Of a DNA stretch of 64,000 nt, positions 40,562 to 63,382 are shown piece after piece. The stretch is from Nitrospirota bacterium. GTDB taxonomy: Bacteria; Nitrospirota; UBA9217. The translations under genes and the position numbers were made by a program. Each line of letters starts with the position of its first letter. The stretch's first letter is position 1. Where the stretch lies: NCBI GenBank assembly GCA_963840455.1, contig CAWIYV010000004.1:32001-96000 (forward strand), read 5' to 3'. A model generated the notes under the pieces. That model saw only the letters and a list, made by a program, of their open reading frames with translations, was not told where the DNA came from and did not search any database.

Positions 40562-40860
40562 AGTATACAGGCTGATATCGGTCGATCTCTTTTCTGATGC
40601 GCGTAAATAAAAAAAGCTTCTTTCAGAGCAAGGATAGTTATCCCCTGTTCCCCATCGAAAGGATTATGGCGGTACTGATCGGATGAATGGCCATAACAAC
40701 AAGAATAGCTCGCCCCATAGTGAGAGTCAAGAGAAAAACCCATATTTTTCGATCAAAAATAATAAAAAGAACAAGTAGATACGTCGTCCTGAAAAGCAGG
40801 ATGCTCGGCCATGGCCAGTGAAGTAAGTTACCTGGAGTGCTCATGCACCATTGGACGCGC

Positions 40861-44409: not shown

Positions 44410-45456
44410 TTACCTTGATTGCCGGTCCACCTCCTCATACACAAGAGCAGAAATGTCGCGCAGGGTCTTTGACAACATCCCGGGATCATCGCCCCGTACC
44501 ATGACGCCTACCAAATAGGGATGTACAGGATGATATACGATCCCGAATTCATGGTACTGTCTCGATCCTGTGGCAGCGTCATCTGCGGGATGGGAAAGCA
44601 TGCGTTCTCCATATTTGGCCACGACGTCTATGTCTGCAGGGACACCGGAGATGATCCCATCCTTGAATGTGGTCTTGGACAGATAACGGAGGGCCTTTTC
44701 GGACATGTCACTGCCGAGGTATGAGGCATTGAAGAGGACGCGAAAGAAAGAAGCATAGGCATTGAAGGTGATCGAGTCATCGTTCTTCGCGGGATCATAA
44801 TCAACGGAGATCTCCTTAAAGATCTTATCGAGACGGCCGGGAGGCAGATTGGCTTTCAACAACGCATAGGCACCGCTGTCATTGTAGGCGATCATCCGGT
44901 AAATGAGCGTGTCTATCTTATAGGACTTCCCCTCTTCAAAAAAATCACTTGTTGTTGGCTGATCCTGGAGAGCGGCGTTGTGATGGCCGGCATAGACGAT
45001 CTTTCTGTTCAGCAGCAGCGGGGTAGATTCCGTCCATTTGAGGTAGGCGATCATGAGCGGCAGCTTTAAGAGCGTGTCACTGGAGAACCGCTCCTGTTCC
45101 CGGATGCCGAACCGTTGGCCATAGAGGAGGTCGCGGAAATAGACCGATATCTCGGAGACTTCGCCTGATTTCTGCCTGCTGCCTGCCAGAGCGGCAACTT
45201 TGTATCGAAAAGGCTTTAGCTCTTTAGCCGCCCGGCCGCTTTCAGCCAGCTTCGCCTGTTCCGCACTTCGAATATACTTGTACTCACCATCCCCGTCGGC
45301 AAGAGAACCCTTGGCGCCTTCATGACGCGCGGAGCCGTATATTTCCATCCCCCTGTCGACATACACCCCGAAGCAAAAAGCCAGCGCAAGGAGAATCAGC
45401 AGCTGTGATCTGCCAAGGACAATGGTGCTTTTTTTATTCTTCATCGGGTCTGACAT
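44410..45456 (-). CDS. Class A beta-lactamase-like serine hydrolase with degenerate catalytic motifs
   Basis: SVYFRDL, DTLLKLP (SxxK changed to TxxK), YNDS (in place of SDN), KYGER, HEFGIVY. Confidence 0.8.
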   Translation of the reverse strand: MSDPMKNKKSTIVLGRSQLLILLALAFCFGVYVDRGMEIYGSARHEGAKGSLADGDGEYKYIRSAEQAKLAESGRAAKELKPFRYKVAALAGSRQKSGEVSEISVYFRDLLYGQRFGIREQERFSSDTLLKLPLMIAYLKWTESTPLLLNRKIVYAGHHNAALQDQPTTSDFFEEGKSYKIDTLIYRMIAYNDSGAYALLKANLPPGRLDKIFKEISVDYDPAKNDDSITFNAYASFFRVLFNASYLGSDMSEKALRYLSKTTFKDGIISGVPADIDVVAKYGERMLSHPADDAATGSRQYHEFGIVYHPVHPYLVGVMVRGDDPGMLSKTLRDISALVYEEVDRQSR

Positions 45457-45562
45457 GTCGTTCTGCTCTCAGTTCGGAAGCCGTGGCTTGCGCCTTTGGT
45501 CGCGCTGAGCCCGGATCACGGCAACGGTTGCCACAGGCCGATCTGTTCCCGATGATAACGCA

Positions 45563-45844
45563 CTAAGCCAATTCATGGACCGTGACCAGCGCAACAAGGG
45601 ACAGCAGAAAAAGACCGGCAAGAAATACCATATCGGCGATCCTCTCATAGCGATCAGAATCTTTCGCCGAGCGCATTGACGCATAGGACAGCACACTGGC
45701 GGCCAAAAATATAATGATCACCACGCCATCCAGCTTGTCGATGATCCGTTCTACGCCGCGGGCCCTCCAGAGCTTTTTTAGCGCAAAGATCACAAAGCAT
45801 AATCCGAGGAGATTTGCCGCCGTCGGCAGTATGTGTTTCGCCAT
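45563..45844 (-). CDS. Small 3-TM membrane protein
   Basis: HILPTAANLLGLCF motif; three hydrophobic segments. Confidence 0.75.
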   Translation of the reverse strand: MAKHILPTAANLLGLCFVIFALKKLWRARGVERIIDKLDGVVIIIFLAASVLSYASMRSAKDSDRYERIADMVFLAGLFLLSLVALVTVHELA

Positions 45845-45873
45845 GTTCTTCCTGTCATTGCTGTTTGCCGGCA

Positions 45874-48471
45874 TCAGGGATCCCTCTTGACCGGCTCTTT
45901 CCCGTGCATTGACGGAACCTCGTACAGTTCGCTTAAGAAATTCGTTTTATAGCGTTCGATGGCGCCATCATCATGGAGCATCGCGTCCAGTTGCCGGGTA
46001 AAGGATATCAGCCTCCCGAGAACGTCGAGGCGCGCTTCCATCTCATCCCGGCCGATGTTCGCCAGCCGGGCAACGATCATGTCGCCCTTGAGCTTGATAT
46101 GGAATCCCTGCTCGTGCAGGACGGCAGCGATCAGCTGGAGCCTCCGGGACCGCTTGGTGATGTCGGTGGCGCCGCCTGCGAAACGGAAATAGAGGTGATT
46201 GTTCCGGGTCACCTCGCTGCAGAAAGCGTCGAGGATGATGTAATGATACCCGAACTTGAGGCTCAGGTTCATATAGTCCCGCGAGATCACGGCAACGCTC
46301 GCGGAGGCCTGCGGCGCGCCGTCGGTCACGATATCCGACGCCCGCAGCATGCTCGTCATGAAGTCATTGGCCCGGAGCGGCACCGACTCTGAACGCCAGA
46401 CGCCCGGATGGACCATGCCCCTGATCACCGCCCGGAGCGGCACCGACGTCACCTGGTCGGTGGTCACGTGGTCCCGTGGTGCGGCATTCTGCAGTCCCTC
46501 TCCGATGTCGATCAGAACGATCCCCGCGGGGATCGAAAGGTCCAGTTTGACGGTACGGTTCGATCGCCACCCCGCGCCTGCCTGATCGATCAGCTCGGCA
46601 ACGGACTTTTCATGGATGAACCGCAGGATGTCATGGAGCGTCCGGCACGCCTTCGGCGTAAAGTCGTCCCGCAAGGGATCGACCAGATTAAGGGGAACGA
46701 TGTACCTCAGCAGGTAACGCTTTTTTCGGTACTCGGACAGTTCCTCCATCCGAAGGGAACCGGCGTTCGCCCGGTCGAGGAGTTGATCCACGACACCGGG
46801 ATAGACGGTCACCTCATGTTCATCGATATGCACCGTGACCTGTTGTCCATGGACGAGGGTCCGGGTCATGTCACCGGTGTTGACCGCCGTCGGAAGCCTG
46901 AACTCGCGGCAGAGTGATGCCATGTGGCTTGTCAGGGCACCGGTGTCGGTGATGATCGCGGCGACATCGGCCATCACCCTCACGAACTGCGAAGCATCAT
47001 GCCGGGCAACCAGGATATCTCCCCGGGAGACCCGGTCAAGATCGGCCGGATTTCTGAGAATAAAGACCCTGCCGGTGGCTCCTCCCGGGTAAACGGCTAA
47101 ACCGTTCTTCCGGGCAATTGCCTGAACCTCTCTGTCCAAGGCCGCCCGATCAGGCTTTTTCCCTGCAGGTTCGGAGTCCCTGAGCGGTCGGGATTGCAGG
47201 ATAAAGACCTTTCCGTCGCCATCGATCGCCCATTCGATGTCCTGCGGTCTCCGGAAGTGCTGTTCGATCTTCACGGCCAGGCCGGCGATCCGGGCGACCT
47301 GCTCCGGCAACAGGCTGGGACGTGTCCGGACGTTCACGGGAACTGACAGGGTCGCGGTCCCGCCACCGCTTACCCGTACAGCCAGGGATTCCTTTGTGCC
47401 GATTTTTTGCTCCAGGATCTCGAAAGGGTCGCCTTTGCTCACCCGGAAGTAGTCCGAGTCCGTTCTGCCCTCGACGACCGATGTTCCCAGTCCCCATGTC
47501 GCGTTGATGACAACACTGTCGCTTGCTCCCCGCGGATCGCGGGAATAGGCGACGCCGCTCGCCGCCGCATCCACCATCACCATACAGGCGACGGCCATTT
47601 TCATGTCCGTTACCCCGTACCCGAGCCGCTGCTGATAGACCAGAGCGCTCGGTGCAAAGATGCTGGCGAGGACCTTCCGGTATGCTCGTTCGACGGCCGC
47701 GGTCTCGGACGGAACGTTCAGCACCGTCTCGAACTGTCCGGCAAACGAGAAGTCGCCATCCTCTTCTCCCGCACTGCTCCGGACCGCGATATAGCAGTCA
47801 CCGCGGCAGCGTTTTCTCAGCCTTCTGACCCCCCGCTCGATCGCACGGCTCAGCTCCGTCGGCATCTCCCCGTGCAGGATGAGCTCCCGTGCCTCCTGAT
47901 AGGCCCTACCGGCGTCCGGACCTCCGGTCAAACCTGAACGCTCCATGACCCGGTTGTGCAGCAGGTATGCTTCAGCAGCCTGTGTCGTGATGACGAATGA
48001 GGCTGGGACCGGCAACCCCAGCCTGTTTCCGAGCTCGGCGAGGTTCCTGGCCTTGCCGCCGACCGCTCCTGCCGCGCTGTCGTCAATATCCTCGGCAACA
48101 ACGACTAGGTCCTTCCTCTGCGGCGAAGCGCCGTCGATCGCGTACCTGATATTCTCATTGATCGACCGATAGACCGTTCGGAGCCGTGGATACCGGCCGG
48201 AGGTAAGCTCTTCGAAGCTCGTAAGCGACCCTTCCAGGGACGCGGAGAGTTCCCCGTAGGAGCGCCGGATATACTGGATATCAAAGAGGTAGTCGCCGCT
48301 CAGTATGTCGCCGATGTCCGTTATGATCTCAAGCGACCGGTTGTTGTTCTTCAGCACGTCGCGGAACTGCCGGAACAGCGCTTCAGGCGAGGTCCGTTTG
48401 CGGGGCCGGATCCCGAGGTGCCGTACAATTGTGGTGAGCCATCCCGCTGGTTTCTTCATGGCCGGTGTCAC
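45874..48471 (-). CDS. PEP synthase/PPDK-like protein (ATP-grasp plus phosphohistidine swivel domain, atypical C-terminus)
   Basis: VGGKA, AVRSSA, SFAGQF, PQDIEWA, LQSRPL, TSHMA. Confidence 0.88.
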   Translation of the reverse strand: MTPAMKKPAGWLTTIVRHLGIRPRKRTSPEALFRQFRDVLKNNNRSLEIITDIGDILSGDYLFDIQYIRRSYGELSASLEGSLTSFEELTSGRYPRLRTVYRSINENIRYAIDGASPQRKDLVVVAEDIDDSAAGAVGGKARNLAELGNRLGLPVPASFVITTQAAEAYLLHNRVMERSGLTGGPDAGRAYQEARELILHGEMPTELSRAIERGVRRLRKRCRGDCYIAVRSSAGEEDGDFSFAGQFETVLNVPSETAAVERAYRKVLASIFAPSALVYQQRLGYGVTDMKMAVACMVMVDAAASGVAYSRDPRGASDSVVINATWGLGTSVVEGRTDSDYFRVSKGDPFEILEQKIGTKESLAVRVSGGGTATLSVPVNVRTRPSLLPEQVARIAGLAVKIEQHFRRPQDIEWAIDGDGKVFILQSRPLRDSEPAGKKPDRAALDREVQAIARKNGLAVYPGGATGRVFILRNPADLDRVSRGDILVARHDASQFVRVMADVAAIITDTGALTSHMASLCREFRLPTAVNTGDMTRTLVHGQQVTVHIDEHEVTVYPGVVDQLLDRANAGSLRMEELSEYRKKRYLLRYIVPLNLVDPLRDDFTPKACRTLHDILRFIHEKSVAELIDQAGAGWRSNRTVKLDLSIPAGIVLIDIGEGLQNAAPRDHVTTDQVTSVPLRAVIRGMVHPGVWRSESVPLRANDFMTSMLRASDIVTDGAPQASASVAVISRDYMNLSLKFGYHYIILDAFCSEVTRNNHLYFRFAGGATDITKRSRRLQLIAAVLHEQGFHIKLKGDMIVARLANIGRDEMEARLDVLGRLISFTRQLDAMLHDDGAIERYKTNFLSELYEVPSMHGKEPVKRDP

Positions 48472-48833
48472 TTTCCCAGTGCACGCCTGATGGATGCCTT
48501 GAGCTCATTGATCTTGACGGGTTTCGGAAAGAAGTCATGCACATCTCCCCGGAGCGCCTCGATCGCCGCATCAAGGTTCGCGAATGCGGTGATCATGATG
48601 ACCTTGGTCCCCGGATACTGCTTCTTCACGATGCGGAGGACCTCCATGCCGTCGATGCCCTTCATCTTGTAGTCGGTCACTACGACATCGAAGGACTGTT
48701 CCTTGAGCCGTGCCAGCGCCGCCTCTCCGTTCAGGAATGTCTCCACGACAAACCCGTCCGTTTCCAGTGACAGCTTGGCCATGTCGCCCACGATCTTCTC
48801 ATCATCAATGACCATGATCCTGTTCTTATTCAT
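48468..48833 (-). CDS. Single-domain response regulator
   Basis: VIDDE, TDYKM, ITA, KP. Confidence 0.92.
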   Translation of the reverse strand: MNKNRIMVIDDEKIVGDMAKLSLETDGFVVETFLNGEAALARLKEQSFDVVVTDYKMKGIDGMEVLRIVKKQYPGTKVIMITAFANLDAAIEALRGDVHDFFPKPVKINELKASIRRALGK

Positions 48834-50238
48834 TGTGTTTGCCAGCTCCTTTCCAGATCGGCAGTTCTATCGTAAAGGTGGTGCCGACACCCACCTTGCT
48901 CTCCACCCGGATCTCGCCCCGGTGGTTCTTGATGATGCCATAGCTCACCGAGAGGCCGAGCCCGGTGCCCCCCTCCCCCTTGGTGCTGAAGAAGGGATCA
49001 AAGATATGCGGCAGAAACTCCGGCGATATGCCCTTGCCCGTGTCCATGACCGTGATCTCCACGGTGTCGCCCTGTCTTCCGGTCCTTGTTCCGATGTAGA
49101 GCTTCTCGCCGGATTTCATTGCCTGGACGGCGTTCGTGATGAGGTTCACGAAGACCTGTTGCATCTGGTGCTCGTCCGCGAACACATGGGGTATCCCCTC
49201 GGCGAGATGCAGTTTCGTCTCGATGTTCGCCACATCGATCATGTTCTGCACGAGCGTCAACGTCCTCTGGATGACCGCGTTGATGTCTGCCTCGCGGGGG
49301 TTCGAATCCTTGGGTTTGGAGAAATCCAGCAGGTTTTTCACGATCTTCTGGATCCGCACCGCCTCTGCCTCGACCTTGCCCATGAACTCGATCCGCTGCT
49401 TTTCGGTCAGCTTGCCGTACAGATCGGCATAGGTCTGTGCGATCATCGAGATGTTGTTCAGGGGATTTGTCAGTTCATGGGCAACGCCCGCCGTCAGAAC
49501 GCCGAGCGATGCGAGCTTCTTGGCCTGGATGAGCTGCTCTTCGCGGTGGCTGAGCTCCTCGGACATGGAATTGATGGCCGTGATGACGGCCCCGAGCTCA
49601 TCTTTTGACTGGAACCCCTCTATCTTGTTGAAGTTCCCCTCAGCGATCGACCTGGTCAGCTTCTCGATCTCACGAAGGGACCGCAGGATCTTCTGCGATA
49701 AGAAGTGCCCCATGAGCAGCGCCGATGCCAGGATCGCCCAGAATGAGAAGATCAGGATCCGCTTCGAGTTCAGGATGATGGTGTTGACGCGCTGCCGCTC
49801 GAGCTGGGTGATGGAGTCCGAAAATTCCTTCAACCGCTTTCCGGCGGCCCGCAGGTCCGTTTCCCGGTCCGCGTCCCACGACCGGGAACGGCGCAGCAAC
49901 ATCACGTGTCCTGCATAGACCTTCAGGTAGGACTCCAGTTTTCGCAGGTCCTGTTCTCCGATGGCTGGCACGATGTTCGGGCGTTCGTCGTCGATGGTCT
50001 TCCGTGCGAGGTCGATCTTCTCCCGGATCTCGTCAAGCGCCTTCTGGTCCCGGTACAGGAAGTAATTCTTCTCCGCGATCCGCATCTCCAGGAACGAAGC
50101 GTTCAGATCATCGGCGATCTCGACGAACCGGAGCTTGGTCAGCACGAGGTTCATGTTCTGAATGGCAAAGAACCCGATCAGGATGATGAACGCACCGTTC
50201 ATGACGTTCGATACTATGAGCTTGTTCTCGATCTTCAT
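48826..50238 (-). CDS. HAMP sensor histidine kinase
   Basis: Two TMs, helical periplasmic domain, AHELTNPL, DTGKG, GTGLGL. Confidence 0.93.
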   Translation of the reverse strand: MKIENKLIVSNVMNGAFIILIGFFAIQNMNLVLTKLRFVEIADDLNASFLEMRIAEKNYFLYRDQKALDEIREKIDLARKTIDDERPNIVPAIGEQDLRKLESYLKVYAGHVMLLRRSRSWDADRETDLRAAGKRLKEFSDSITQLERQRVNTIILNSKRILIFSFWAILASALLMGHFLSQKILRSLREIEKLTRSIAEGNFNKIEGFQSKDELGAVITAINSMSEELSHREEQLIQAKKLASLGVLTAGVAHELTNPLNNISMIAQTYADLYGKLTEKQRIEFMGKVEAEAVRIQKIVKNLLDFSKPKDSNPREADINAVIQRTLTLVQNMIDVANIETKLHLAEGIPHVFADEHQMQQVFVNLITNAVQAMKSGEKLYIGTRTGRQGDTVEITVMDTGKGISPEFLPHIFDPFFSTKGEGGTGLGLSVSYGIIKNHRGEIRVESKVGVGTTFTIELPIWKGAGKHNE

Positions 50239-50253
50239 GGTTCGTGCTCCGCG

Positions 50254-51498
50254 TCACCGGAACGATGCCTGCTCCTCGTCCGGGTAGGCGATACCCCGCG
50301 GGACCTCGGCCTGCTCCTTCCTGACGGGCCAGTACCACCGCATCCCGTCCACGAGCATCAGGATGCCGGCGGCCATGAGCCAGAGATTTATGGAGGTGAG
50401 GAGGCCCAGTCCGAAATACGCCAGGCTGCCGATGCCGATGCCCAGCAGGGACGTCCCGGTGCGGATGAAGGCGAGTCCGGTCCTCGCCCGAGCATACACC
50501 GTGCGATAGCATGCGGCGATCGTCCGCTGCGCCGCCAGTACATTGCGCTCCCGGGCGAACATGGTCCGCGTCCTGCTCGTGGGCGACGGGCCTAAATAGG
50601 TGCTGTAGTCGGCCAGCAGGTCCCCCATCCGCGCGAGCATCGTCCCCTTCGTTTCCCGTCGCACTCCCGTGTCCTCCAGCGTGTGGTAGCTCTCCAGGAA
50701 CTGGATCGTGGCGGCCGTCACTTCCGTGAGCGTCTGGCTGCCCGGCGGCTTCATCCTCGATCTCCGCACCCGCCAGTAGCTCGGGAGGCCTGAGAGGGAA
50801 ATCACGACGCCGATGACCACGAGAGAGAAGTAGTGCAGGGGGCTGGCTGCCATGCTCTTCGATTGCAGCAGCGCGTTCGAAAGCGCGATCGTACCGAGGC
50901 CCCACCGCAGGAAGGCAAGACCGGTCCTGGCCTTGGCAAGGTCGGTCCGGTAACAGGCCATCCGCGTACGCCACTGCGCCATCGTGTTCCGCCAGAATGC
51001 CAGCCCCGTCCGCTCCGTTCCGATCAGGAGCCCCGGCCTGGCATGCAGGAAATCCTGGAGGTACCACTGGATGTCCGCATCGAGGGCGACGCGGAACTCA
51101 TAGCGCCCGTCCCCGAGCTGCTTCCGCACGTCCTCCTGCATCGCCCGGCTTCCCGGGTCCCTCGTTGCGATGACCACGGTCCCGGACGCCTCCTGTATGA
51201 CAGGCATCCACCGGTTCGTCGAAAGCGAGTCCACGCTGACCCTGACCAGCAGCCCGGGAGGGATGGGCAGGCGCTCATCATATTCTATGGAGGGACAGTC
51301 ATAGTACGCTGCAAGCGATTCAAGCAGCTGCGCCTTGGAGATGCCGTATTCCCGCTGCAACACCGATTCGAGCTCGATGCCCCTCGCCTGAGCCGCCTTC
51401 GCAGCCGCCTCCAGCCCCGCGCGGCTGATCATCCCCCGCTCGACGAGCAGTGCGAACTCTTCTTCGCTCTGCGTTGCCTGCGATTGGTCGTTGTGCAT
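50254..51498 (-). CDS. MshEN/T2SSE_N-like domain fused to two DUF202-like membrane units
   Basis: LLVERGMISRAGLE...LESLAAYYDCPSI N-domain; two heptad RxxLAxxR tracts ending RTGLAFxR plus two TMs each. Confidence 0.78.
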   Translation of the reverse strand: MHNDQSQATQSEEEFALLVERGMISRAGLEAAAKAAQARGIELESVLQREYGISKAQLLESLAAYYDCPSIEYDERLPIPPGLLVRVSVDSLSTNRWMPVIQEASGTVVIATRDPGSRAMQEDVRKQLGDGRYEFRVALDADIQWYLQDFLHARPGLLIGTERTGLAFWRNTMAQWRTRMACYRTDLAKARTGLAFLRWGLGTIALSNALLQSKSMAASPLHYFSLVVIGVVISLSGLPSYWRVRRSRMKPPGSQTLTEVTAATIQFLESYHTLEDTGVRRETKGTMLARMGDLLADYSTYLGPSPTSRTRTMFARERNVLAAQRTIAACYRTVYARARTGLAFIRTGTSLLGIGIGSLAYFGLGLLTSINLWLMAAGILMLVDGMRWYWPVRKEQAEVPRGIAYPDEEQASFR

Positions 51499-51502
51499 TA
51501 GG

Positions 51503-53158
51503 TTATGAGTCCTCATGATCGAACAGCACCGTTCCCCATGCACGGTTCGGTTTCCCGTAGTCGGGCACCGTCAGTTCCATTGCCCCATAGCAATAGGGAT
51601 ATTCCTTTCTGATCCGTTCCGCGGGCACGATCCAGCGATAGCCGTCAGCGATCAGGGCAAGACCGGTAACGATCATAACCGCGTTGACCACGCTCCATCC
51701 CGCCGAAGCCGTACCGAAGTACACCAGCAGGCCTGCGCCGACGGACGCGATGCTCATCCCGGTCCTGACAAAGGCCATGCCAGTCCGCGCCACGGCCATG
51801 GCCGTGCGGACCCTCGCCATGACGCCCCGCCGGTCGGCGAGCACGGTCCGTTCCAGTGCAAGCCCCGTGGTGGCCCAGATGCCCGGCAGCTGGTCGCCGC
51901 TGACCGGCGGCCCCGGCCGCTCCTTCCCCGTTCCCGCGCGATTATGCCGGAGCGGGAACACGAGGTCCCAGATGCTCATCTTGTCGATCACTTCCATCAC
52001 CGACCGCAATCCATCCATGCCGGACCTCCGGCCGCCCAAATACCAGAGGAATCCCTCGGCGGACATGAGCGCGCCGATGACGATAAGCGCGACGTCAAGA
52101 AGCGTCCAGGCTCCAGCCGGGAACTGGCGCAGAAGCCCGATGCCGAGGCCGGTAAAGGCAATGCCGGTCCTCGTAAAGGCCAGACCGGTCCTTGCCCGGG
52201 CAAGCTTCGTCCGGTGGCCGGCAAGCGAGGTCCGGTCCTCGGCCATGTCGGTCCGGTCGCTCGCCAGGAACCGCCGCCGCATTACGGGAGACAGGTTCTC
52301 CCATCCGCTCCGGAGCTCCGCCGAACCCGGCACCACTTCCGTCCTGTTGAACCGGGGAGGGCCGTCGCCAAGATCAGCATCGAGCACGCAGGTTCCCCAG
52401 GTGGATTCCGAGCGCGCCGCATCGATAGATTTCCCGGCGATCGCCCGCGCCGGAAGATACCAACGTATCCCATCAACCGCCATAATTAGGCCCGCCGCGA
52501 GGAGCGGTGCTTCGATCGCGGCGTACCAGCCCGATCCCAGCACGCGCAGGAACAGCAGCGCTATCACGATAAAGGAAACACCGGTCCTGATGAAAGCGAG
52601 GCCGGTCCGTCCTTTCGCGTACAGCGTCCGGTAATGCGCATAGGTCGACCGCCGGTAGGCAAGGAGCGTCCGTACGCGCGCGAGCGGCGTCCTACCTGCA
52701 CAGCCGAAGAAGCTGGGGTTCACGTCGAAATTGTGTTCGATGATGCGGATGATATCCCCGGGAAGGGCTATCCGGAAGTCAATCTCTTCCACGCCCAGCG
52801 TCTTCTTGATGTCCTCAGCCACGCGAGGATCGTCGGGACGGTAAGTGATCACCTCCGCTCGCCGCTCCTGGACCGAGAGCGGGAACCACAAACCCTGCTT
52901 CAGATGCTCCATGTCCAGGCGGAAGGTGAGAAAATAGGAAGCGATCACGCTCTCGTCGAATTCCACGAAGGGCAGGTGGTAGCGGCCGGCAAGACAGAAC
53001 AGGACCTCGTGCTTCGGCACCCCTGCTTGCAGAAGCAGCTCTTCCAGCGGCGTTTTCGTCTCCGCCGATATCCGGCCAAGTTCCTCCAACCGGGCCTGTG
53101 TTATGAACTTTCTCGCAACGAGCCGCTTGAAAGGTGCTATGACAGTATTTCGTTCCAT
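51503..53158 (-). CDS. MshEN/T2SSE_N-like domain fused to three DUF202-like membrane units
   Basis: LVARKFITQARLEE...LAGRYHLPFVEF N-domain; three heptad Arg tracts ending RTG(L/M)AFxRTG plus two TMs each. Confidence 0.78.
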   Translation of the reverse strand: MERNTVIAPFKRLVARKFITQARLEELGRISAETKTPLEELLLQAGVPKHEVLFCLAGRYHLPFVEFDESVIASYFLTFRLDMEHLKQGLWFPLSVQERRAEVITYRPDDPRVAEDIKKTLGVEEIDFRIALPGDIIRIIEHNFDVNPSFFGCAGRTPLARVRTLLAYRRSTYAHYRTLYAKGRTGLAFIRTGVSFIVIALLFLRVLGSGWYAAIEAPLLAAGLIMAVDGIRWYLPARAIAGKSIDAARSESTWGTCVLDADLGDGPPRFNRTEVVPGSAELRSGWENLSPVMRRRFLASDRTDMAEDRTSLAGHRTKLARARTGLAFTRTGIAFTGLGIGLLRQFPAGAWTLLDVALIVIGALMSAEGFLWYLGGRRSGMDGLRSVMEVIDKMSIWDLVFPLRHNRAGTGKERPGPPVSGDQLPGIWATTGLALERTVLADRRGVMARVRTAMAVARTGMAFVRTGMSIASVGAGLLVYFGTASAGWSVVNAVMIVTGLALIADGYRWIVPAERIRKEYPYCYGAMELTVPDYGKPNRAWGTVLFDHEDS

Positions 53159-53395
53159 CGTACCTTTGTGCCTCTATCCTTATTCAATATTAGCAAAAAA
53201 CACGGCCGGAAGCATGCTGTGCCTCCGGCCTTCAAGACAGGACGAGATGTTCACCCACCGCACGGAGCTGGATCACGTACCGGACGACGGGACGTATGAA
53301 TCAGTTCGGTTCATCCGCAGCATCCTCAAGCCATCCTCCGGAGCTCTCTTCTCTCCCCAGTATTGTTCCCTTGCCTTATTCGTCTTCCTCCGGGA

Positions 53396-53818
53396 TCACG
53401 CCCCGACCACGAACACCGGGCAGGGAGCCCGGCGGATCACGTTCTCGATCACATGATCGCCGAAGAGCCGGCCGAGCCAGCCTTTCGGTTTTTTCGCACC
53501 GAGGATAATCACGTCGCACCGCTCTTCCGCCGCAACCTCCACGATCTTCTCGGCGGGCGCGCCTTCTTCCAGCCGGGTCCTGATCAGGGCGCCCGCTGCA
53601 TCGGCGGCGCTCCGCGCCCCGGCAAGGGCCTTTTGTGCTTCGCTGTCGAGCACATCATTGAGATTCTTGATGCCCGTCAGATTAAGGTCTCCCTCGTACT
53701 CCGGAATGACCTTGAGCACCGTGACCCAGGTCTTTTCGTCCTGCGCCATCTTGATGCCTTCCTGCACGACATCCGTCGATCCGTTCATGGCGATCAATAC
53801 TTTACGATAGCCTTTCAT
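53396..53818 (-). CDS. Universal stress protein
   Basis: YRKVLIAMNGS, G.PAEKIV, CDVIILG, APCPVFVV. Confidence 0.9.
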   Translation of the reverse strand: MKGYRKVLIAMNGSTDVVQEGIKMAQDEKTWVTVLKVIPEYEGDLNLTGIKNLNDVLDSEAQKALAGARSAADAAGALIRTRLEEGAPAEKIVEVAAEERCDVIILGAKKPKGWLGRLFGDHVIENVIRRAPCPVFVVGA

Positions 53819-53855
53819 AGTTCACTCTCCTTGCGCTCTGATCCCGCTGCGCGGT

Positions 53856-54719
53856 CTACTTCACCACCAGCACCGGGCAGGCCGCGTGGCTGATCACCCG
53901 GTTCGTCGTGCTGCCCATGATCGCCTGGTTCACGCCCTTCCATCCGTAGGTCCCCATGGCGATCAGGTCGTTCTCGAGCTTCTGCGCCGCAGCCACGATC
54001 TCGTCGGACGCATGGCCCTCACGGACCTCCGTCCTGACGCTTATGCCCAGCCCGTCGGCGATCTTCTTCGCCTCGCCGAGGATCTTCTCGGCCTCGGCGT
54101 GGAGGCTTTTCTTGATGCTGTCGCTCCGGTAGAACTCCATCATCTCCTCGTACCGCGGGATCACGTACAGGACCGTGACCTGCCCATTGTCCGCCTTCGC
54201 CATCTCGCCTGCCCGGACCAGCGCTTTCCTGCTGAACTCCGATCCGTCATAGGGCACGAGCAGCGACTGATAGCTCCCCGTGCATTCGCTGCATGGCCGC
54301 TTCACCACCAGCACGTCACAGGGCGCGTTCAGGATAACCTGGGACGTCACGCTGCCCATGAGCAGCCGCTTCAGGCCTTTCCGGCCGTAGGTCCCGAGCG
54401 CGATGAGGTCCGCCTTCTTGCCTTGGGCGATATCAATGAGCACTTCGGGCGGCTCGCCCTCGCAGACGAAGGACTCGACGCTGCCGTTCAGGCCGAACTG
54501 CGCCTGAAGCTCTTGCTTCGCCGTTCTGCAGACATGCGTGCCCATCTCGAAGCGCTTCTCCATCTGCGACGGCAGGATTGCGAACTCCTCCTGGTCAAAG
54601 TAGACCGCATGGACAAGGTAGAGCTTACCGTTCAGGTTCTTGACCCGAAGGGATGCCTCCTTGAGCGCCGCTTTGCTCGACTCCGACTCGTCATATCCCA
54701 CTACGATCGTGCTGTACAT
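53856..54719 (-). CDS. Tandem-domain universal stress protein
   Basis: Two USP domains (GTYGRKGLKRLLMGSV; GTYGWKGVNQAIMGST). Confidence 0.92.
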   Translation of the reverse strand: MYSTIVVGYDESESSKAALKEASLRVKNLNGKLYLVHAVYFDQEEFAILPSQMEKRFEMGTHVCRTAKQELQAQFGLNGSVESFVCEGEPPEVLIDIAQGKKADLIALGTYGRKGLKRLLMGSVTSQVILNAPCDVLVVKRPCSECTGSYQSLLVPYDGSEFSRKALVRAGEMAKADNGQVTVLYVIPRYEEMMEFYRSDSIKKSLHAEAEKILGEAKKIADGLGISVRTEVREGHASDEIVAAAQKLENDLIAMGTYGWKGVNQAIMGSTTNRVISHAACPVLVVK

Positions 54720-55519
54720 TAGTGTGAACCTCCGCCCTTCCGGAAGACCATGCCCACGCCGAATCCGGCGCTCAAGGCAATTCCGATGGAAAGGAATCCG
54801 TAAAGTGCCGCGCTGTCCTTCGCCATGCCCGCAAGCGTCTTGACCATGCCCACCTGCTCGACCTTCACATGCGATTCCGCCTGTTCAACCACTTTGCCGC
54901 CCTTGATCGCGTACACGGACACCGTGTAATCGCCCGGCGCCGCCTGGTAGGGCCACTGGGTCTGGATGAAGTATTCCTGGTGCCCGTCCGGCAGGTCCTT
55001 CATCTCGATCTTCCCGAAATCGGTCTTGTAAAGGTTCGATGCTTCCTTGAACTTCACGAACTCTCCGAACCACTGTGTCTTCTCTGCCGCATTTGCCATG
55101 GGGCTGATCTCCACATGGTCAGCCAGCGCCGCGTAGCCTAGCGTATGCTTTTTCTGCTCATCGGCGGTCAGGATATCATCGACCTTCTTTGTGCTGAACA
55201 GTTCGTACATGTTCGGCGTGTTCTCGAACTTCAGCGTGCCTACGTTCATCCAAAGCACGCCGGCAACCTTGCCCTTCTGCTTCATGACCTGGTGCCCCTC
55301 GGGGGAGGTGATCTTGATCACCAGGTCCCTGCCTGCGTCGGAGATCCCCTTCACGCCCACCGTGCTGCCGTGGTAGAAAAAGTCGATGGTGATGTGGTCA
55401 TGGTTCGCCTTCGCCGTCAGCATGGCATGCGCCGTGCCTGAGAATCCTACGACCATGACTGCAACCAGCGCGACGATTATGGCCTTTCCGCAATCCGCGA
55501 TCCGCGATCCGCAATTCAT
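54719..55519 (-). CDS. TIGR02186-family exported protein with C-terminal TM anchor
   Basis: KGKVAGVLWMN motif, C-terminal TM ending KGGGSH; directly follows a TauE gene as is typical for the family. Confidence 0.8.
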   Translation of the reverse strand: MNCGSRIADCGKAIIVALVAVMVVGFSGTAHAMLTAKANHDHITIDFFYHGSTVGVKGISDAGRDLVIKITSPEGHQVMKQKGKVAGVLWMNVGTLKFENTPNMYELFSTKKVDDILTADEQKKHTLGYAALADHVEISPMANAAEKTQWFGEFVKFKEASNLYKTDFGKIEMKDLPDGHQEYFIQTQWPYQAAPGDYTVSVYAIKGGKVVEQAESHVKVEQVGMVKTLAGMAKDSAALYGFLSIGIALSAGFGVGMVFRKGGGSH

Positions 55520-55521
55520 TA

Positions 55522-56448
55522 TTAATGTCCTCCCGCCTGTGAGATGAGCAGCGACGGCGTCAGCGTCAGGTCGAACACGATCTTGACGGTCACGATCAGC
55601 ACGATCGTAGCGAGCAGGACCTTGAGCTGCTCACCCTTGAGCTTCCTGCCGAAGACCGTGCCGATCTGGGCGCCCACCGTGGAACCGACCAGCAGCAGCA
55701 CGGCCAACAGGAAGTCCACGCTGTGGTTCGTAGTGGCCTGCAGAAAGGTGACCTCGATGCAGGTGAACAGTATCTGGAACAGGCTCGTCCCGACCACGAC
55801 GTGCATCGGCATCCGGAGCATGTACACCATCACCGGCACCATGAGGAAGCCTCCTCCCACACCCATGATCGCGGCGAGTACGCCGACGAAGCCTCCGAGC
55901 ACGATGGGAACCAGGGCCGAGTGGGTCACGCCGGACTTCTCGAACCGCGTCTGGAGCGGCAGCGACTTGAGGAAGCGCCCGACTGCGGAGTCCTTCTCCT
56001 CCTGCGCTTCGACGATGGTCTCTTCCTTCTTCTTGCGCATGCTCTGGATGCTTTCGATGAACATGTAGACGCCCACGATACCGAGCATCAGCACGTAGGT
56101 CATCTTGATCACGAAGTCCGCGTTTCCCATGGCGTGCAGCAGTTTGATCGCCTGCACACCAACCAGGCCGCCCAGAAATCCGCCGATGAGAAGGTAGATC
56201 CCCATCTTGAAGTCCACATTTCCCACCTTCCAATGGGCATAGGTGCCCGAGGTCGAGGCCGCGACGATCTGGTTCGAATCCGTTGCCGCGGCAACGGTCG
56301 AGGGGATGCCGAACATGATGAGCAGCGGGGTCAGCAGAAAGCCGCCGCCCACGCCGAAGAGGCCGGACAAGAGCCCCACGGCCAGACCGAGGCCGACGGG
56401 AATCAGGATATTGATGCTGGTGAGTGCTACGGGTAGATACAGGTACAT
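55522..56448 (-). CDS. TauE/SafE family (sulfite exporter-like) permease
   Basis: GLFGVGGGFLLTP, GVGGGFLMVP, VVGTSLFQ. Confidence 0.92.
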   Translation of the reverse strand: MYLYLPVALTSINILIPVGLGLAVGLLSGLFGVGGGFLLTPLLIMFGIPSTVAAATDSNQIVAASTSGTYAHWKVGNVDFKMGIYLLIGGFLGGLVGVQAIKLLHAMGNADFVIKMTYVLMLGIVGVYMFIESIQSMRKKKEETIVEAQEEKDSAVGRFLKSLPLQTRFEKSGVTHSALVPIVLGGFVGVLAAIMGVGGGFLMVPVMVYMLRMPMHVVVGTSLFQILFTCIEVTFLQATTNHSVDFLLAVLLLVGSTVGAQIGTVFGRKLKGEQLKVLLATIVLIVTVKIVFDLTLTPSLLISQAGGH

Positions 56449-56483
56449 CGTGATGACTCCTTTTTAAAAGAGATTTTAATTCT

Positions 56484-56560
56484 CGCAAAGGCGCAAAGGC
56501 CGCCACGAAGACCAGTCCTTGGTTCTTTTGTTCCTGGACCTTTGCGTGCTTAGCGTCTCG
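56484..56560. repeat. CGCAAAG-type inverted-repeat element (degenerate)
   Basis: CGCAAAGG CGCAAAG ... CTTTGCGTG CTTAGCG. Confidence 0.5.
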
Positions 56561-56610
56561 CTTAGAGGCGCCTACTTCTGGTGGCAAGAGAAAGAGAGAA
56601 AATTTGTTAC

Positions 56611-57165
56611 TTAATACCCCGCTGACGGCACATACCGGAGCGGAGCGCCTTTCCGCACCCGCTCTTCCCGGGCGGCCTGGACCGACTGCCTGGTCATGGT
56701 AACGATCGGCCGCGACGCTGTCCGGACCAGCCGGTTCAGCTCCCTGGTGGTCAGGACCTCGCCCTCGGTCACTGCGGGGCTCAGAACCACCTTGTCGACC
56801 ACCGTGTTGCCCTTGAGAAAGGACCGGATGCCGGAGACAACGTCGTTGTCCGTGTGCTGAACATCCAGGTGAACGCCCGCCTTGCTGGATGCCACGATCA
56901 TCTCGGTGATCTTCCCGTCCATGCCCGCCGGGAGGACGCTCTCCTTGCCACTCACGATCCGGCGAGCGCTCTCATGCTCCCCTTCCTCGGCAAAGCTCAC
57001 GCCCGCCATGAGGTCTTGGAAGCGCTCATTCAGGGAGTCCTTCTTCCGGACCAGCAGGACAACGATGTCCTCGAGCATCGCCTTCGCCAGCTCGATGGTA
57101 TAGGATATGCCCTCGTCGATATGATCGTCCTGGTACGTGACAAATAACAACTGCCGCTTGTTCAT
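56611..57165 (-). CDS. Hypothetical protein, first gene of the sigma54 operon (weakly USP-like)
   Basis: SD AAGGAGGAG before ATG 57165; coding-like composition. Confidence 0.75.
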   Translation of the reverse strand: MNKRQLLFVTYQDDHIDEGISYTIELAKAMLEDIVVLLVRKKDSLNERFQDLMAGVSFAEEGEHESARRIVSGKESVLPAGMDGKITEMIVASSKAGVHLDVQHTDNDVVSGIRSFLKGNTVVDKVVLSPAVTEGEVLTTRELNRLVRTASRPIVTMTRQSVQAAREERVRKGAPLRYVPSAGY

Positions 57166-57197
57166 ATACTCCTCCTTGCTTGTTTGGTATCTATAGA

Positions 57198-57212
57198 GCA
57201 AGTGGGGTGCCA
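57198..57212 (-). promoter_or_regulatory. Sigma54 (-24/-12) promoter
   Basis: TGGCACCCCACTTGC consensus match. Confidence 0.85.
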
Positions 57213-57217
57213 GAAGC

Positions 57218-57435
57218 TAAGTTGTTGATTTCCATGGTTTCATATGCAGGTACAGAGCAGGATTATGTTTCAGTTCTGAACGGCTGTGAACGGTGCGCGA
57301 GGAGTTCGGATAAGCGCGGCACGCCAAAAGAACGATCCTAGCCGCTATTCATGCGGAAGATATGAGGCGCTAACTGATGGGAAATGAAAGAATAAGGAAA
57401 GAAATGGATACCGGGAGGTGTTTCAAGATGGAACA
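57218..57435. promoter_or_regulatory. IHF site and two putative enhancer (bEBP) binding palindromes
   Basis: AATCAACAACTTA (57218-57230, fits WATCAANNNNTTR); TGTTTCAGTTCTGAAC (57266-57281) and TGTTTCAAGATGGAACA (57419-57435). Confidence 0.55.
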
Positions 57436-57539
57436 ACGACTTTCAGAGAGGTTGCCTGGAGGTCGCATCAGGCTGGAAGAATTAACGAATCAGCAGTATA
57501 TTGCAACCAGGGAGACAAATCCTCGCAAGAGAGGAAACG

Positions 57540-57722
57540 ATGACCGCTGTCGCTGATAAGAAACCTGCCGCCGTCTGTGGGCTCTTTTGCCCTGTCTGCA
57601 CGACTAATATCGAGACCAGTGAGGACTGCACCATGGCGAAATGCGCAGCTGATACCTTCCTGCTATTGCTTCACCCCTATTCCGCACTATCTACGCCGCG
57701 GTCCCTGATTCCCTTGCGATGA
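57540..57722 (+). pseudogene. Internally deleted remnant of a Cys-rich DUF3795-like protein
   Basis: SD GAGG; DKKPAAVCGLFCPVC...ED joined directly to CTMAKCAAD. Confidence 0.5.
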
Positions 57723-58675
57723 CCGGCTCCGCGCTCGCCTTGTCCAGGAGTTCCCTGGCCTGTTGGTCCAGTTTCAGGTTCGCTGCTTCGACAAGCGCCT
57801 TCAGTTGCTCCACGCTCGTTGCGCTCGCGATCGGCGCCGTGATCCCGGGCTGCGCCATGACCCATGCCAGCGCTATGCTCGCAGGCGCGACCTCGTATCG
57901 CATAGCCACCCGGTCCAGCGCCGCCAGGATGCTGAAACCCCGCTCGGTCATGTACGTCTTGACCCGCTGGCCCCGGACGCTCTTGGACAGGTCCTTGATT
58001 GACCGGTACTTGCCCGTGAGAAAGCCGCTGGCCAGACCGTAGTAGCTGATCACGCCGATGTGCTGCTCCCGGCAGAGAGGGGCCAGCGTCCGCTCGAACT
58101 CGGCCCGGTCATAGAGGTTGTACAAGGGCTGCAGGCTTTCGTACCGCGGCAACCCCTTCTCTTCGCTGATGGCAAGGGATTGCGCCAGCCGCTTCGCCGT
58201 GAAATTCGAGGCGCCGATAGCGCGCACTTTCCCCTCCTTGATCAGCTGCTCGTAGGCTGAGAGCGTTTCTTCCATGGAAGCAGCCGGGTCGTCCCGGTGC
58301 GACTGGTAGAGATCAATATGGTCCGTCTGCAGCCTGCGGAGCGAGGCTTCCACGGCGCGGAGGATGTAGTCCCGGGAGAGCCCCTGCAGCCCCGGTCCCA
58401 TCTCGCTGCCGACTCTTGGTGGCGATGACGACCTTCTGCCGGTTCCCCCGCTCTTTGATCCAGTTGCCGATGATGGTCTCCGATTCCCCGCCTTGGTTGC
58501 CCGGGACCCACCGCGAATAGACATCGGCGGTATCGATGAGATCGAAGCCTGCCGCAACAAAGGCATCGAGGATCAAGAAGGCAGTCGGTTCATCGACGGT
58601 CCAGCCGAAGACATTGCCGCCCAGCGCCAGCGGCGCGACAATGATGTCCGACCTTCCCAGTTTGCGCTTTTTCAT
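57691..58675 (-). pseudogene. Aldo/keto reductase with a +1 frameshift
   Basis: LGGNVFGW, DTADVYS, VIATK / one extra base at about 58414 / VGSEMG..GLSR, IDLYQSH, IGASN. Confidence 0.85.
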
Positions 58676-58866: not shown

Positions 58867-61800
58867 TTACCGCACGCAGGTCTCCATGTTGCTCGGGCAG
58901 ACCTCGCCCAGCACCGGTTCCTGCCTGCTCTCCGTCGCCTTTTCCTTCCCATGCTCTGCCGCGAACAGCAGGTACATCGCCGGGACAACATAGAGCGTAA
59001 AGAGCGTGCCGATGGCGATCCCGGCCATGATCACGAGGCCCATGTTGAAGCGCCCCGCTGCTCCTGCGCCGGACGCGGTCACAAGCGGCAGGACGCCCAG
59101 GACCATGGCCGCCGTGGTCATGAGGATCGGCCGCAGCCTGATGGCTGCCGCCGTCCCGATCGCATCTGCCTTGCTCTTCCCTTCGCGCTGCAGGTCATTG
59201 GCGAACTGTACGATGAGGATCCCGTGCTTGCTGATCAGCCCGATCAGCGTGACCAGCCCCACTTCCGTATAGATGTTCAGGCTCGCGCCGCCCACGCCGA
59301 GGCTGATGAAGATCATGGCTCCGAAGATCGACATGGGCACACTGATCAGAACGATGAAGGGGTCGCGGAAGCTCTCGAACAGCGCCGCAAGCGACAGAAA
59401 GATGATAATGAGCGAGAAAAAGAACGTGGCCACCAGCGCGCTCGATTCCTGGACATACTGCCGCGACTGGCCGGCATAGTCGACGCTGTAGCCCTGGGGC
59501 AGGACCGAACGGGCGGCGCCGGTCAGCGCCTCCAGGCCCTGTCCGAGCGTCACGCCCGGGGCCAGCACCGCCGAGAGCGTCGCCGCGTTCAGCTGCTGGA
59601 AGTGATTGAGCGACTCCGGCACGACCGTGGTTTTGAGCTTCGTGATCGTCGAGAGCGGTATCACGCCGCCGCTTGCCGTGGTGATGTAATAGTCCTGCAG
59701 CTGGCCGGCATTCAGCCGGTCCGTTCGCTGCACCTGGGCGATGACCTTGTACGAACGGCCTCCGAAGCTGAAATAGTTGACATAGCCCCCGCCCAGCGCA
59801 GACCCGAGGGTGCTGCCCACATCCCGCATGGTCAGGCCCAGCTGGGACGCCTTGTCGCGGTCGATCTCCACGGTGACCTGCGGCTTGTCGATCTTGAGAT
59901 CGCTGTCCAGATAGGCGAACATCCCGCTCCCATAGGCCTTGCCGACCACGGCCTGCGATACGTCGTTCAGCCGCTCGTAGGATTCAGTGGTCCCGATCAC
60001 GAACTGGACCGGCAGCCCGCTGCTTCCCGGAAGCGGAGGACGCAGGAAGGCCGCTGTCCGCGATGCAGCGATCGAGTTCATGCGCTGCTGGACCAGCGGC
60101 AGCAGCTCCATGGAGGTCCGCGTCCGTTCGTCCCAGGGCTTGAAGACCATGCCGCCGAAGGCGATGTTCAGGGCGCCCGCCCCGGCGAACTGGAACACGT
60201 GATCGGTCTCCGGATAGGAAGCGTAGATATCATAGACCTGCCGCGTCGACAGCTGCGTCTGCGCCAGCGTGGCGTTGGGCGCCGCGGTCGTGAGCGCAAT
60301 GACGATCCCCTGGTCCTCGTCGGGAGCAAGTTCGCTCTTCGACGAGGCGTACAGGAAGTAGATGCTCACCAGAACGATGCCGGCGAACACGCCGACGACG
60401 GGCAGGCTCTTGAGCGCCGTCTGCAGCGTCCGTTCATAGCCCCGGCGCAGCCTTCCGAACTGAAGATCGATCCATCGGGCAAACCGGTTCCCGTTGTTGT
60501 GGTTCGCGGGCCGGAGGAACCGGGAGCTCATCATCGGGGAAAGCGTCAGCGCGACGACGGCCGACACGGCCACCGCTCCCGCCAGCGTGTAGGCGAATTC
60601 GGTGAACAGCGCCCCGGTCAGGCCGCCCATGAAGCCGATCGGCACATAGACGGCGATCAGCACGATTGAGATCGCGATGATCGGACCGGCGAGCTCGCGG
60701 GCGCCCTGGAGCGCGGCATCCAGCGGCCGCATCCCTCCCTCGATGTGCCGGTGTACGTTCTCGACCACGATGATGGCGTCATCCACGACCAGCCCGATGG
60801 CGAGGACCAGCGCGAGCAGGGTCAGGAGGTTGATCGTGTAGCCCAGGACCAGCATGATGAAGAACGCGCCGATCAGGGACAGCGGCATGGCAATGGTGGG
60901 GATGATGACGGACCGGAAGGTGCCGAGGAAGAGGAAAATCACGGCGGTCACGATGAGGAGCGCCTCGATGAGCGTGATGACCACTTCCCGGATCGAGCTG
61001 TTCACATAACGGCTCGCGTCATAGACGATGCGGCCGTCCAGGCCCGCGGGCAGCTGCTCCGCGATCGGCGGGAAGGCCTTGCGCACGCCGTTGATCACCG
61101 TCAGGAGATTTGCGGACGGCGCGACCTTGATCCCGATGTACACGGCGGCCTTGCCGTCGAAGGTCACCGCCGTATCATAGTCCTCGGCGCCGAGCACGAC
61201 GCGGGCCACATCGCCCAGCCGCACCAGCGCCCCGTTCTGCTGCCGGACCACGAGATTGCGGAACTCATCCTCCGTGTGCAGGCTCGTATCCGCCGTGAGG
61301 TCCACGCTCACCATCTGGCCCTTGGTGCGGCCCAGCGCGGAAATGAAATCGTTGGCAGCCAGGGCGTTGCTCACATCGGCCGCAGTGACGCCGTGTGCCG
61401 CCATCTTCTGCGGATCGAGCCAGGCCCGGAGCGCGAACTGGCGCTGCCCGAGGATCTCCGCCTGCTGCACGCCTTCCACGGCCTGGAGCTTCGGCTGCAC
61501 CACGCGGATGAGGTAGTCGGTGATCTTGTTCGGCGGGAGCACCTTGCTGGAGAACCCGATGTACATCGAATCGATCGTCTCGCCGACGGCCATCGTGATG
61601 ACCGGCTGCTGGGTCTCGCGCGGCAGCTGGTTCAGGACCGCGTTGACGCGCGTGTTGATCTCCGTCAATGCCTTGTTGGGATCATAATTAAGCCGCAGGT
61701 AGGCCTGGATCGTGCTCGTGCTCTGCTTGCTGGATGACGTCAGGTAGTCGATGCCGTTGGCCTGGGCGATGGAGCTCTCCAGCGGCGTGGTGATGAATCC

Positions 61801-61980: not shown

Positions 61981-62009
61981 CTTTCCGCCTCCTTGTGCCT
62001 TCCGGGCCA

Positions 62010-63134: not shown

Positions 63135-63382
63135 GCTCCATTCCTCCTTACCCGCCGCTGCGGCAAGCATCCCCCCTTTTTTGCAGGGAAAGCCGCTTTT
63201 CCCGCTCCTCACTGTTCATACAGGACTTTTACTATCCCGTATGTATATTATATCACCGGGGTCAAGGTCCGCACTCCTGTTCGAACGCAGGAGGCCGGGG
63301 AAATGCTGTTTGAGGAGGGGCGGGGCGGAACAAGGGAAGAGACCAGACATTCATGGCACGGTCTCGTTCGCGGTCAGAGCAT

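Follow-up and report, generated by a model that had tools for sequence, protein, structure and literature searches.

DUF202 (YidH) is, to our knowledge, a widespread bacterial membrane family without known function, whose only understood relative is the eukaryotic polyphosphate channel formed by the VTC complex. As far as the available text of two reports goes (PMC9911596; bioRxiv 10.1101/2023.01.27.525886), VTC is a 3:1:1 heteropentamer with three transmembrane (TM) helices per subunit, in which five TM1 helices build the inner ring that lines the pore, the filter consists of two rings of basic residues spaced by 7 positions (K24 and R31 in Vtc1, and the equivalent positions), and a hydrophobic ring constitutes the gate. 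Neighbouring subunits are locked, according to the accessible part of the preprint (bioRxiv 10.1101/2023.01.27.525886), by a salt bridge between E30 of TM1 and R83 of TM3. On the bacterial side, E. coli yidH is given in the available portion of a further study, the only relevant one that a literature search on YidH brought up, as an unconfirmed candidate from a D-alanine exporter screen, with no transport effect seen (PMC10299036). Here we describe two adjacent genes, referred to as A and B, which occupy positions 50254-53158 of a 64,000-nucleotide stretch from a Nitrospirota bacterium (GenBank assembly GCA_963840455.1, contig CAWIYV010000004.1, positions 32,001 to 96,000; this whole stretch is called the window), and whose products carry DUF202-type units, three in A and two in B. 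A preliminary description of the window had likened the pair to VTC, and the VTC facts it cited agree with the available text of PMC9911596 and of the preprint. We propose that A and B together make up a regulated, positively charged five-hairpin conduit for anionic cargo, probably one other than the polyphosphate made by polyphosphate kinases (PPK), a reading that in our judgement stands about an even chance of being right.

The pair comprises the following features, with residues numbered within each protein:

51503-53158, minus strand: gene A, 551 aa, an open reading frame (ORF) with Pfam matches to an MshEN-like domain and then three arginine-ladder DUF202 units
52724-53146, minus strand: MshEN/T2SSE_N-fold domain of A, residues 5-145, from PF05157 and fold searches, without the cyclic di-GMP (c-di-GMP) motif
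52439-52714, minus strand: A unit 1, residues 149-240, where the R156-R191 ladder and TM1 form one unbroken helix and TM2 follows; helices in the model at 156-207 and 213-241
52022-52297, minus strand: A unit 2, residues 288-379, with the R295-R330 ladder, TM1 and TM2; model helices 291-345 and 352-391
51596-51871, minus strand: A unit 3, residues 430-521, with the R437-R465 ladder, TM1 and TM2; model helices 425-481 and 486-519
50254-51498, minus strand: gene B, 414 aa, an ORF with Pfam matches to an MshEN-like domain and then two arginine-ladder DUF202 units
51040-51456, minus strand: MshEN-like domain of B, residues about 15-153, from PF05157 (41.1 bits)
50758-51033, minus strand: B unit 1, residues 156-247, with the R163-R198 ladder, TM1 and TM2
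50314-50589, minus strand: B unit 2, residues 304-395, with the R311-R346 ladder, TM1 and TM2

The ORF list places both genes on the minus strand at 50254-53158, with B listed as 50254-51543. The start codon of B is probably 51498 (M16 of the listed ORF) rather than 51543, since the relatives of B measure 413-414 aa, and this start leaves a gap of 4 nucleotides (nt) between the end of A and the beginning of B. Relatives of A measure 545-551 aa and share 58-94% identity. The preliminary description had read both genes as starting with an MshEN/T2SSE_N-like domain, followed by DUF202 units and no ATPase, and the Pfam scores bear this out. In A, MshEN (PF05157) scores 36.8 bits over a cut-off of 23.1, and DUF202 (PF02656) 52.4 bits over a cut-off of 23.4, in three stretches of which the best spans residues 316-370; in B, MshEN reaches 41.1 bits over the same cut-off. 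DUF202 gives 21.8 bits for the whole B protein in two stretches, slightly below its cut-off, with one stretch reaching 23.7 bits in a six-frame search of the genome, and most B-type relatives carry PF02656 in precomputed annotation. No ATPase domain was found by Pfam in A or B, and the repeat peptides quoted earlier occur in both proteins exactly as they had been written. Concerning the N-terminal domain of A, structure comparison with VIA gave Z 14.6 to MshE (5htl_B; root-mean-square deviation 3.1, 138 residues aligned), 13.3 to 6f8l_G and 12.7 to 8pdk_A, the Z 12-13 range being that of the N-domains of PilF, XpsE and PilB, and Foldseek matched PilF GSPII-B (9gl5_A) at E 1.4e-4. The solved PilB-N/PilZ entries 7lko and 7lkm are among the matches, so this type of domain is also a protein-docking module.

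All five membrane units of A and B can be aligned in register across 92 residues, B unit 1 having the most divergent membrane part. Each unit opens with heptads of the form x-R-T-x-(L/M)-A-x, in which the RT recurs at exact 7-residue spacing and hydrophobic helix 1 begins within the last two heptads (ARTGLAFxRTG), and then passes through a loop of 5-6 residues into hydrophobic helix 2, which finishes in DG..WY.P.R. When 61 A-type and 56 B-type sequences are aligned, 28 of the ladder Arg prove invariant and one more, R437, is conserved at 90% or more. The invariant positions are R156/163/170/177/184/191 in A unit 1, R302/309/316/323/330 plus R295/R296 in A unit 2, R444/451/458/465 in A unit 3, and R163/170/177/184/191/198 and R311/318/325/332/339/346 in units 1 and 2 of B. 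Judged from these alignments, the invariance of the heptad Arg is far beyond chance. The heptad phase runs on into TM1 with small residues, including an invariant G337, and in two units it is closed by an Arg at the outer end (R205 and R344, each conserved in at least 90%). The residue preceding the membrane-proximal Arg is G, A, Y, V or I, and not Glu. An AlphaFold2 model of A (pLDDT 80.5, pTM 0.70) shows ladder and TM1 as one continuous helix at 156-207, 291-345 and 425-481, with a second helix after each. This two-helix hairpin geometry would therefore place both ends of every unit in the cytoplasm, with two TM helices per unit. The same count of two, as against three in YidH and Vtc1, is given by the model of A together with the unit alignment, while hydropathy marks hydrophobic stretches in all five units and does not separate single helices.

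The family is narrow, with 257 of 1.84 billion representative proteins matching at E <= 0.001 and 39 at E <= 1e-30. Within the phylum, a search with A at E <= 1e-10 gave matches in 113 out of 401 sampled genomes; some 60 of them are strong and full-length, across ten taxonomic families, and the remainder are weak, near 1e-11. Outside the phylum the pair was seen in one Desulfobulbaceae and one Desulfurivibrio record (L105, L122). The arrangement is strongly kept: a 3-unit frame followed by a same-strand 2-unit frame was observed in all 30 best loci (the second frame is split by a frameshift in L018), and in a wider set of 20 loci, drawn from 20 genomes, A lies next to B every time. Counting by protein, 119 of 120 A-type sequences have three units (P0088 has two) and all 120 B-type sequences have two. 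The count of 3+2 units given in the preliminary description is thus upheld, and in homologues both this count and the adjacency of the pair are conserved. A literature search found no paper naming both MshEN and DUF202, and none of the DUF202 papers listed, as far as titles and abstracts tell and with supplementary files aside, treats the A/B family.

Binding between the two proteins is supported in silico. The A-B complex model gave ipSAE values of 0.76, 0.75 and 0.74, the best of three controls giving 0.00, and the runs share at least 77% of their contacts, with a partner pLDDT of at least 68; the ipSAE mark is reached by 58 of 80 solved complexes and by 2 of 110 mismatched pairs, counts that are approximate here since custom alignments were used. 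The contacts of high confidence follow the ladder/TM1 helices in register, joining A unit 1 (156-206) to B unit 2 (311-360) and A unit 3 (422-479) to B unit 1 (155-210), and the MshEN-like domain of B contacts A at 416-437 and 517-537. With Arg as heptad position a, A unit 1 and B unit 1 use positions a, b, e and f in the model, and B unit 2 and A unit 3 use g, a, d and e; the two ends of a chain would therefore present the two different faces. If neighbours within a chain pack alike, as we infer, the only closure would be the five-membered cycle A1-B2-B1-A3-A2-A1. The presence of Arg (position a) in both contact faces is expected if Arg points to the axis. Overall, the complex model supports A-B binding, and its contacts fit a closed five-unit ring. 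The 1:1 heterodimer put forward in the preliminary description accordingly finds backing in a model that passes its controls and displays the contacts that a closed pseudo-pentamer needs.

The mechanism that we favour has A and B as subunits of one inner-membrane complex, to which A would contribute three hairpins and B two, the five closing, within each chain as between the chains, into a ring that resembles the one built in the membrane by the five subunits of eukaryotic VTC. The inner helix TM1 of each hairpin would reach about 30-35 residues into the cytoplasm with its six heptad-spaced Arg facing inward, and 29 Arg, stacked in rings round the axis, would form a long, strongly positive cytoplasmic funnel leading to the membrane pore. 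This funnel may act as a conduit or as a binding track for anionic cargo. The two MshEN-like domains, with c-di-GMP binding presumably lost, would serve as docking or regulatory heads, a sensor kinase and a receiver, presumably co-transcribed with the pair, probably control the complex, and a dikinase resembling phosphoenolpyruvate (PEP) synthase would be the functional partner of A/B.

These partners and the other conserved features around the pair are the following:

48826-50238, minus strand: sensor histidine kinase (HAMP-HisKA-HATPase_c by Pfam), 15 nt after B
48468-48833, minus strand: stand-alone receiver domain protein (Pfam and synteny), with an 8-nt overlap with the kinase gene
45874-48471, minus strand: PEP-synthase-like dikinase (by Pfam, PPDK_N and a phosphohistidine swivel domain, then a 300-aa C-terminal domain)
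53204-53230, minus strand: strong terminator-like hairpin separating the USP genes from A, with 11 pairs (8 GC) and then a T run
53396-57201, minus strand: upstream conserved block (Pfam and NCBIfam) of a 196-aa protein, TauE/SafE, Alph_Pro_TM (TIGR02186), a tandem-USP protein and a single USP

Little space separates the five genes A-B-kinase-receiver-dikinase: two of the four junctions are gaps (4 and 15 nt) and the other two are overlaps (8 and 4 nt). Downstream of B, the trio of kinase, receiver and dikinase recurs in 15 out of 20 loci of relatives; the five misses are a contig edge (L049), a locus with the receiver only (L039), two with none of the three (L036, L045) and one with an insertion (L047). 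Within the taxonomic family, a dikinase orthologue (E < 1e-95) is present in 33 of 37 pair-bearing genomes versus 1 of 27 pair-lacking ones, these genomes being kin rather than independent and the four misses including fragmented assemblies. Overlooked in the preliminary description, the sensor kinase, receiver and dikinase are the likeliest regulators of A/B.

The dikinase departs from known PEP synthases. It scores 284.7 and 296.2 bits with the PpsA models TIGR01418 and NF005057, against cut-offs of 739.75 and 598, the alignments end at about residue 570, and Pfam found only PPDK_N and the mobile domain, without the C-terminal PEP-binding TIM barrel (PF02896). The C-terminal 300 aa (45874-46779, minus strand) are modelled as an alpha/beta domain (pLDDT 82) with no match in the PDB (none by Foldseek at E <= 0.001, best VIA Z 6.5), and an Atlas search returned uncharacterised clusters only. 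Its invariant residues, H49, D50, H56, E57, H179, N194 and R213 in domain numbering, look like a predicted active site. A genuine PPDK with PF02896 is encoded elsewhere in the genome; it lies beside glyS, and a canonical DUF202 gene lies beside a MarC gene, a second DUF202/PPDK_N pairing that we dismissed as coincidental.

Upstream of A, the conserved block is kept in part: out of 20 relatives' loci, 12 have TauE, 11 have Alph_Pro_TM and 9 have the 196-aa protein. The 196-aa protein (56611-57201, minus strand), which lies upstream of TauE, has no Pfam or NCBIfam match, and a literature search found no paper on TIGR02186/Alph_Pro_TM. The hairpin at 53204-53230 sits 46 nt upstream of the A start codon, within the 237-nt gap after the USP gene, and could be the end of the upstream operon or a leader/attenuator for A; Rfam gave no match in 45000-58000, which includes it. 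Contigs from libraries labelled as metatranscriptomic fall on the operon and are short: those of X1, of uncertain RNA status, reach 26 of 30 bins, and those of X4, the sole RNA-Seq run, 10 of 30 operon bins at 90-99% likeness. These contigs do not show transcription of this organism's operon. Two relatives' loci are broken, possibly by assembly error or operon decay, with nearly all cluster genes in several frames at G239:C6 (L050/L111) and with B and TauE split at G206:C12 (L047). Flanking the cluster (58867-63212, minus strand) are an aldo/keto reductase and an ordinary RND efflux pair, its pump of the AcrB type and its adaptor of the HlyD type.

The ladder also occurs outside the pair. In single-unit relatives recovered by the representative search (P0319, P0363, P0354 and others), 6 to about 25 xRTxLAx heptads precede one two-TM unit. 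The long-ladder relatives P0319, P0363, P0354 and P0312 (loci L074-L130) come from records that bear the labels Deltaproteobacteria, Acidobacteriota, Myxococcota, Zixibacteria, Ignavibacteria and Gemmatimonadales. Some single-unit proteins are fused to a receiver domain (P0304), and one predicted protein, P0386, runs on into a dikinase, being N-terminally cut with a partial receiver domain and so possibly an assembly artefact. The genomic context of these relatives was taken from 80 loci, made up of 23 ladder-receiver fusions, 45 other single-unit loci and 12 A/B pairs; the pairs were picked up via their receiver, which biases the context seen around them. The dikinase directly follows 20 of the 23 fusions, which are in Desulfobacterota records, the misses being two contig ends and L070. 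Among the other single-unit loci, 8 of 45 have dikinase and TauE (7 of those 8 with Alph_Pro_TM), 16 a kinase and 15 a receiver. Taken together, these counts of dikinase, kinase, receiver and TauE place the ladder unit beside one set of partners in each of three architectures.

It should be noted that the same relatives can be read in favour of another function, in which the five-hairpin assembly is a non-conducting membrane receptor or scaffold in which the Arg bundle would hold an anionic ligand or an acidic stretch of a protein, the complex then positioning or regulating dikinase and receiver at the membrane. We regard this as rather unlikely, although it comes next after the conduit. The fusion of a single unit to a receiver in Desulfobacterota (P0304; the 23 loci) is a signalling-type architecture, the spread of ladder lengths in single-unit proteins, from 6 heptads up to about 25, fits a stalk more easily than a pore, the periplasmic loops are just 5-6 residues long, and T2SSE_N docks proteins, as in PilB-N/PilZ (7lko, 7lkm); but TM1 and TM2 are strongly conserved (at G337, R205 and R344), which an anchor does not need, and VTC, a proven channel, has a homologous membrane unit. 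Several observations also weigh against a conduit built like VTC. The VTC module has three TM helices whereas the A/B unit has two, TM3 being absent, and because of this the E30-R83 ionic lock of VTC is without a counterpart. The 29 buried Arg, with few acidic partners, need counter-ions and might mean that Arg faces outward instead. The predicted pore, ring geometry and Arg orientation are derived from contact lists alone, and ipSAE, being the model's own confidence, may owe something to a remembered solved VTC pentamer. For the membrane part of A, neither Foldseek against pdb nor the wide VIA search, queried with the large multi-unit model of 551 residues, listed a VTC chain, the matches there being unspecific barrels and helical repeats (Z 11.4 at most), and a profile of the A family run against PDB sequences matched only PilF, PilB and MshE and no VTC; with a query of this size and make-up, such a miss does not count against a VTC-like ring. 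Finally, the 3+2 count stood in the 30 of 30 loci, and two genomes have an A, A', B arrangement (L035 = G321:C8; G387:C5), where stoichiometry may not be 3+2; the tandem 3-unit genes before B suggest alternative large subunits. A fused five-unit protein was likewise not found at E <= 0.001 in a search with B for longer proteins, which is weak evidence.

Concerning the cargo and its control, the conduit that we prefer needs to be distinguished from three more specific proposals. A VTC-like channel moving inorganic polyphosphate across the inner membrane, the cargo considered in the preliminary description, shares the membrane module and the count of five with VTC, its Arg-Thr rings would suit phosphate binding, and the genome has a Ppx-GppA family gene (G000, C7:246501-247385). 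We nevertheless find it improbable: searches of the window's genome (completeness 100%, contamination 0.83%) gave no PPK1 (PF02503), across the taxonomic family 1 genome in 64 has PPK1 and none of the 64 has PPK2 (PF03976), and Pfam finds no TTM or SPX domain in the operon. The lineage appears, from these profile searches, to be without canonical polyphosphate kinases, and ordinary PPK-made polyphosphate is for this reason an unlikely cargo of A/B, so that the polyphosphate proposal is weakened. We know of no role of periplasmic polyphosphate in this lineage. The five-gene operon as a whole might instead be a bacterial counterpart of VTC, in which the dikinase phosphohistidine makes or loads an anionic product (possibly a phosphate polymer), the 29-Arg A/B tube exports it, and kinase and receiver act as the switch; this combined scheme seems to us, if anything, still more doubtful.

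The third proposal, that c-di-GMP binding to the MshEN-like domains gates the assembly, we consider highly improbable, even though the domain of A matches c-di-GMP-bound MshE so closely (Z 14.6). The c-di-GMP motif, which we take to be two tandem 24-residue motifs each starting with RLG, was scored with the model NF053729 and gave 11.7 bits in A and 23.3 in B, both below the cut-off of 38. By column counts over the 61 A-type sequences, the start of motif 1, where RLG is expected, reads x-K-F, and that of motif 2 reads x-L-E, with E39 in 60 of 61. Hence the degenerate motif noticed earlier is confirmed, the RLG-type motifs seem lost family-wide, and c-di-GMP binding by either domain is unlikely on sequence grounds. 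The window does hold a PAS-PAS-GGDEF diguanylate cyclase and an sCache-HAMP-HD-GYP-type protein (39137-42507, minus strand; 8-11 kb downstream of the pair), a proximity that would favour gating, but GGDEF and HD-GYP genes are not kept next to the operon in 20 relatives' loci, where BLAST gave one weak PAS-region match. On balance, a conduit remains the most likely function, a non-conducting scaffold comes next, and a polyphosphate-specific channel is less likely.

As to the significance of the pair, A and B, tied to a kinase, a receiver and a dikinase with an uncharacterised acceptor domain, offer a concrete system for probing the cargo or ligand of bacterial DUF202 proteins. Should A/B conduct, the anion or polyanion channels of prokaryotes would gain a new class, with anaerobes of the sulfate-reducer type as its main hosts, and should the dikinase feed A/B, the result would be a new route of coupled synthesis and export. 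New here are the ring order read from contact faces, the scarcity of PPK1 and PPK2 over 64 genomes, the dikinase co-inheritance count, a dikinase C-domain without PDB fold match, and a ladder module common to single-unit relatives.

Compared with known systems, A and B share the N-domain fold and Pfam family of the MshE, PilF and PilB ATPases, in which an ATPase follows the N-domain, whereas A and B have no ATPase and have probably lost the RLG-type c-di-GMP motifs. With the single-unit ladder proteins (Desulfobacterota, Acidobacteriota, Zixibacteria and others) they have in common the ladder and two-TM unit and the neighbours dikinase, receiver, kinase, TauE and Alph_Pro_TM; these proteins differ in having no MshEN domain, ladders of 6 to about 25 heptads and one unit per chain, and therefore homo-oligomerisation would be needed. 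A YidH/DUF202 protein of 133 aa from the same genome starts TM1 with ERTxLAWxRT and belongs to the same Pfam family as A/B, but the canonical YidH type has a single unit with three hydrophobic segments or TM helices, in which two to three of the basic residues keep the heptad phase. The closest counterpart is VTC (Vtc1 x3, Vtc3 or Vtc2, and Vtc4), which has in common with A/B the Pfam module DUF202/PF02656, an inner helix that starts with the (E)RTxLAxxRT motif, and five modules per assembly, a number known for A/B from gene counts. VTC carries the TTM polymerase and the SPX sensor, and no such Pfam domains occur in A, B or the neighbouring genes. In VTC the five modules are separate subunits, whereas in A/B they are covalently linked as 3+2 in two chains, so that the stoichiometry is set by the genes, and the heptad-spaced basic residues at the cytoplasmic mouth, two rings in VTC, would be enlarged in A/B into an arginine ladder of five to six rings.

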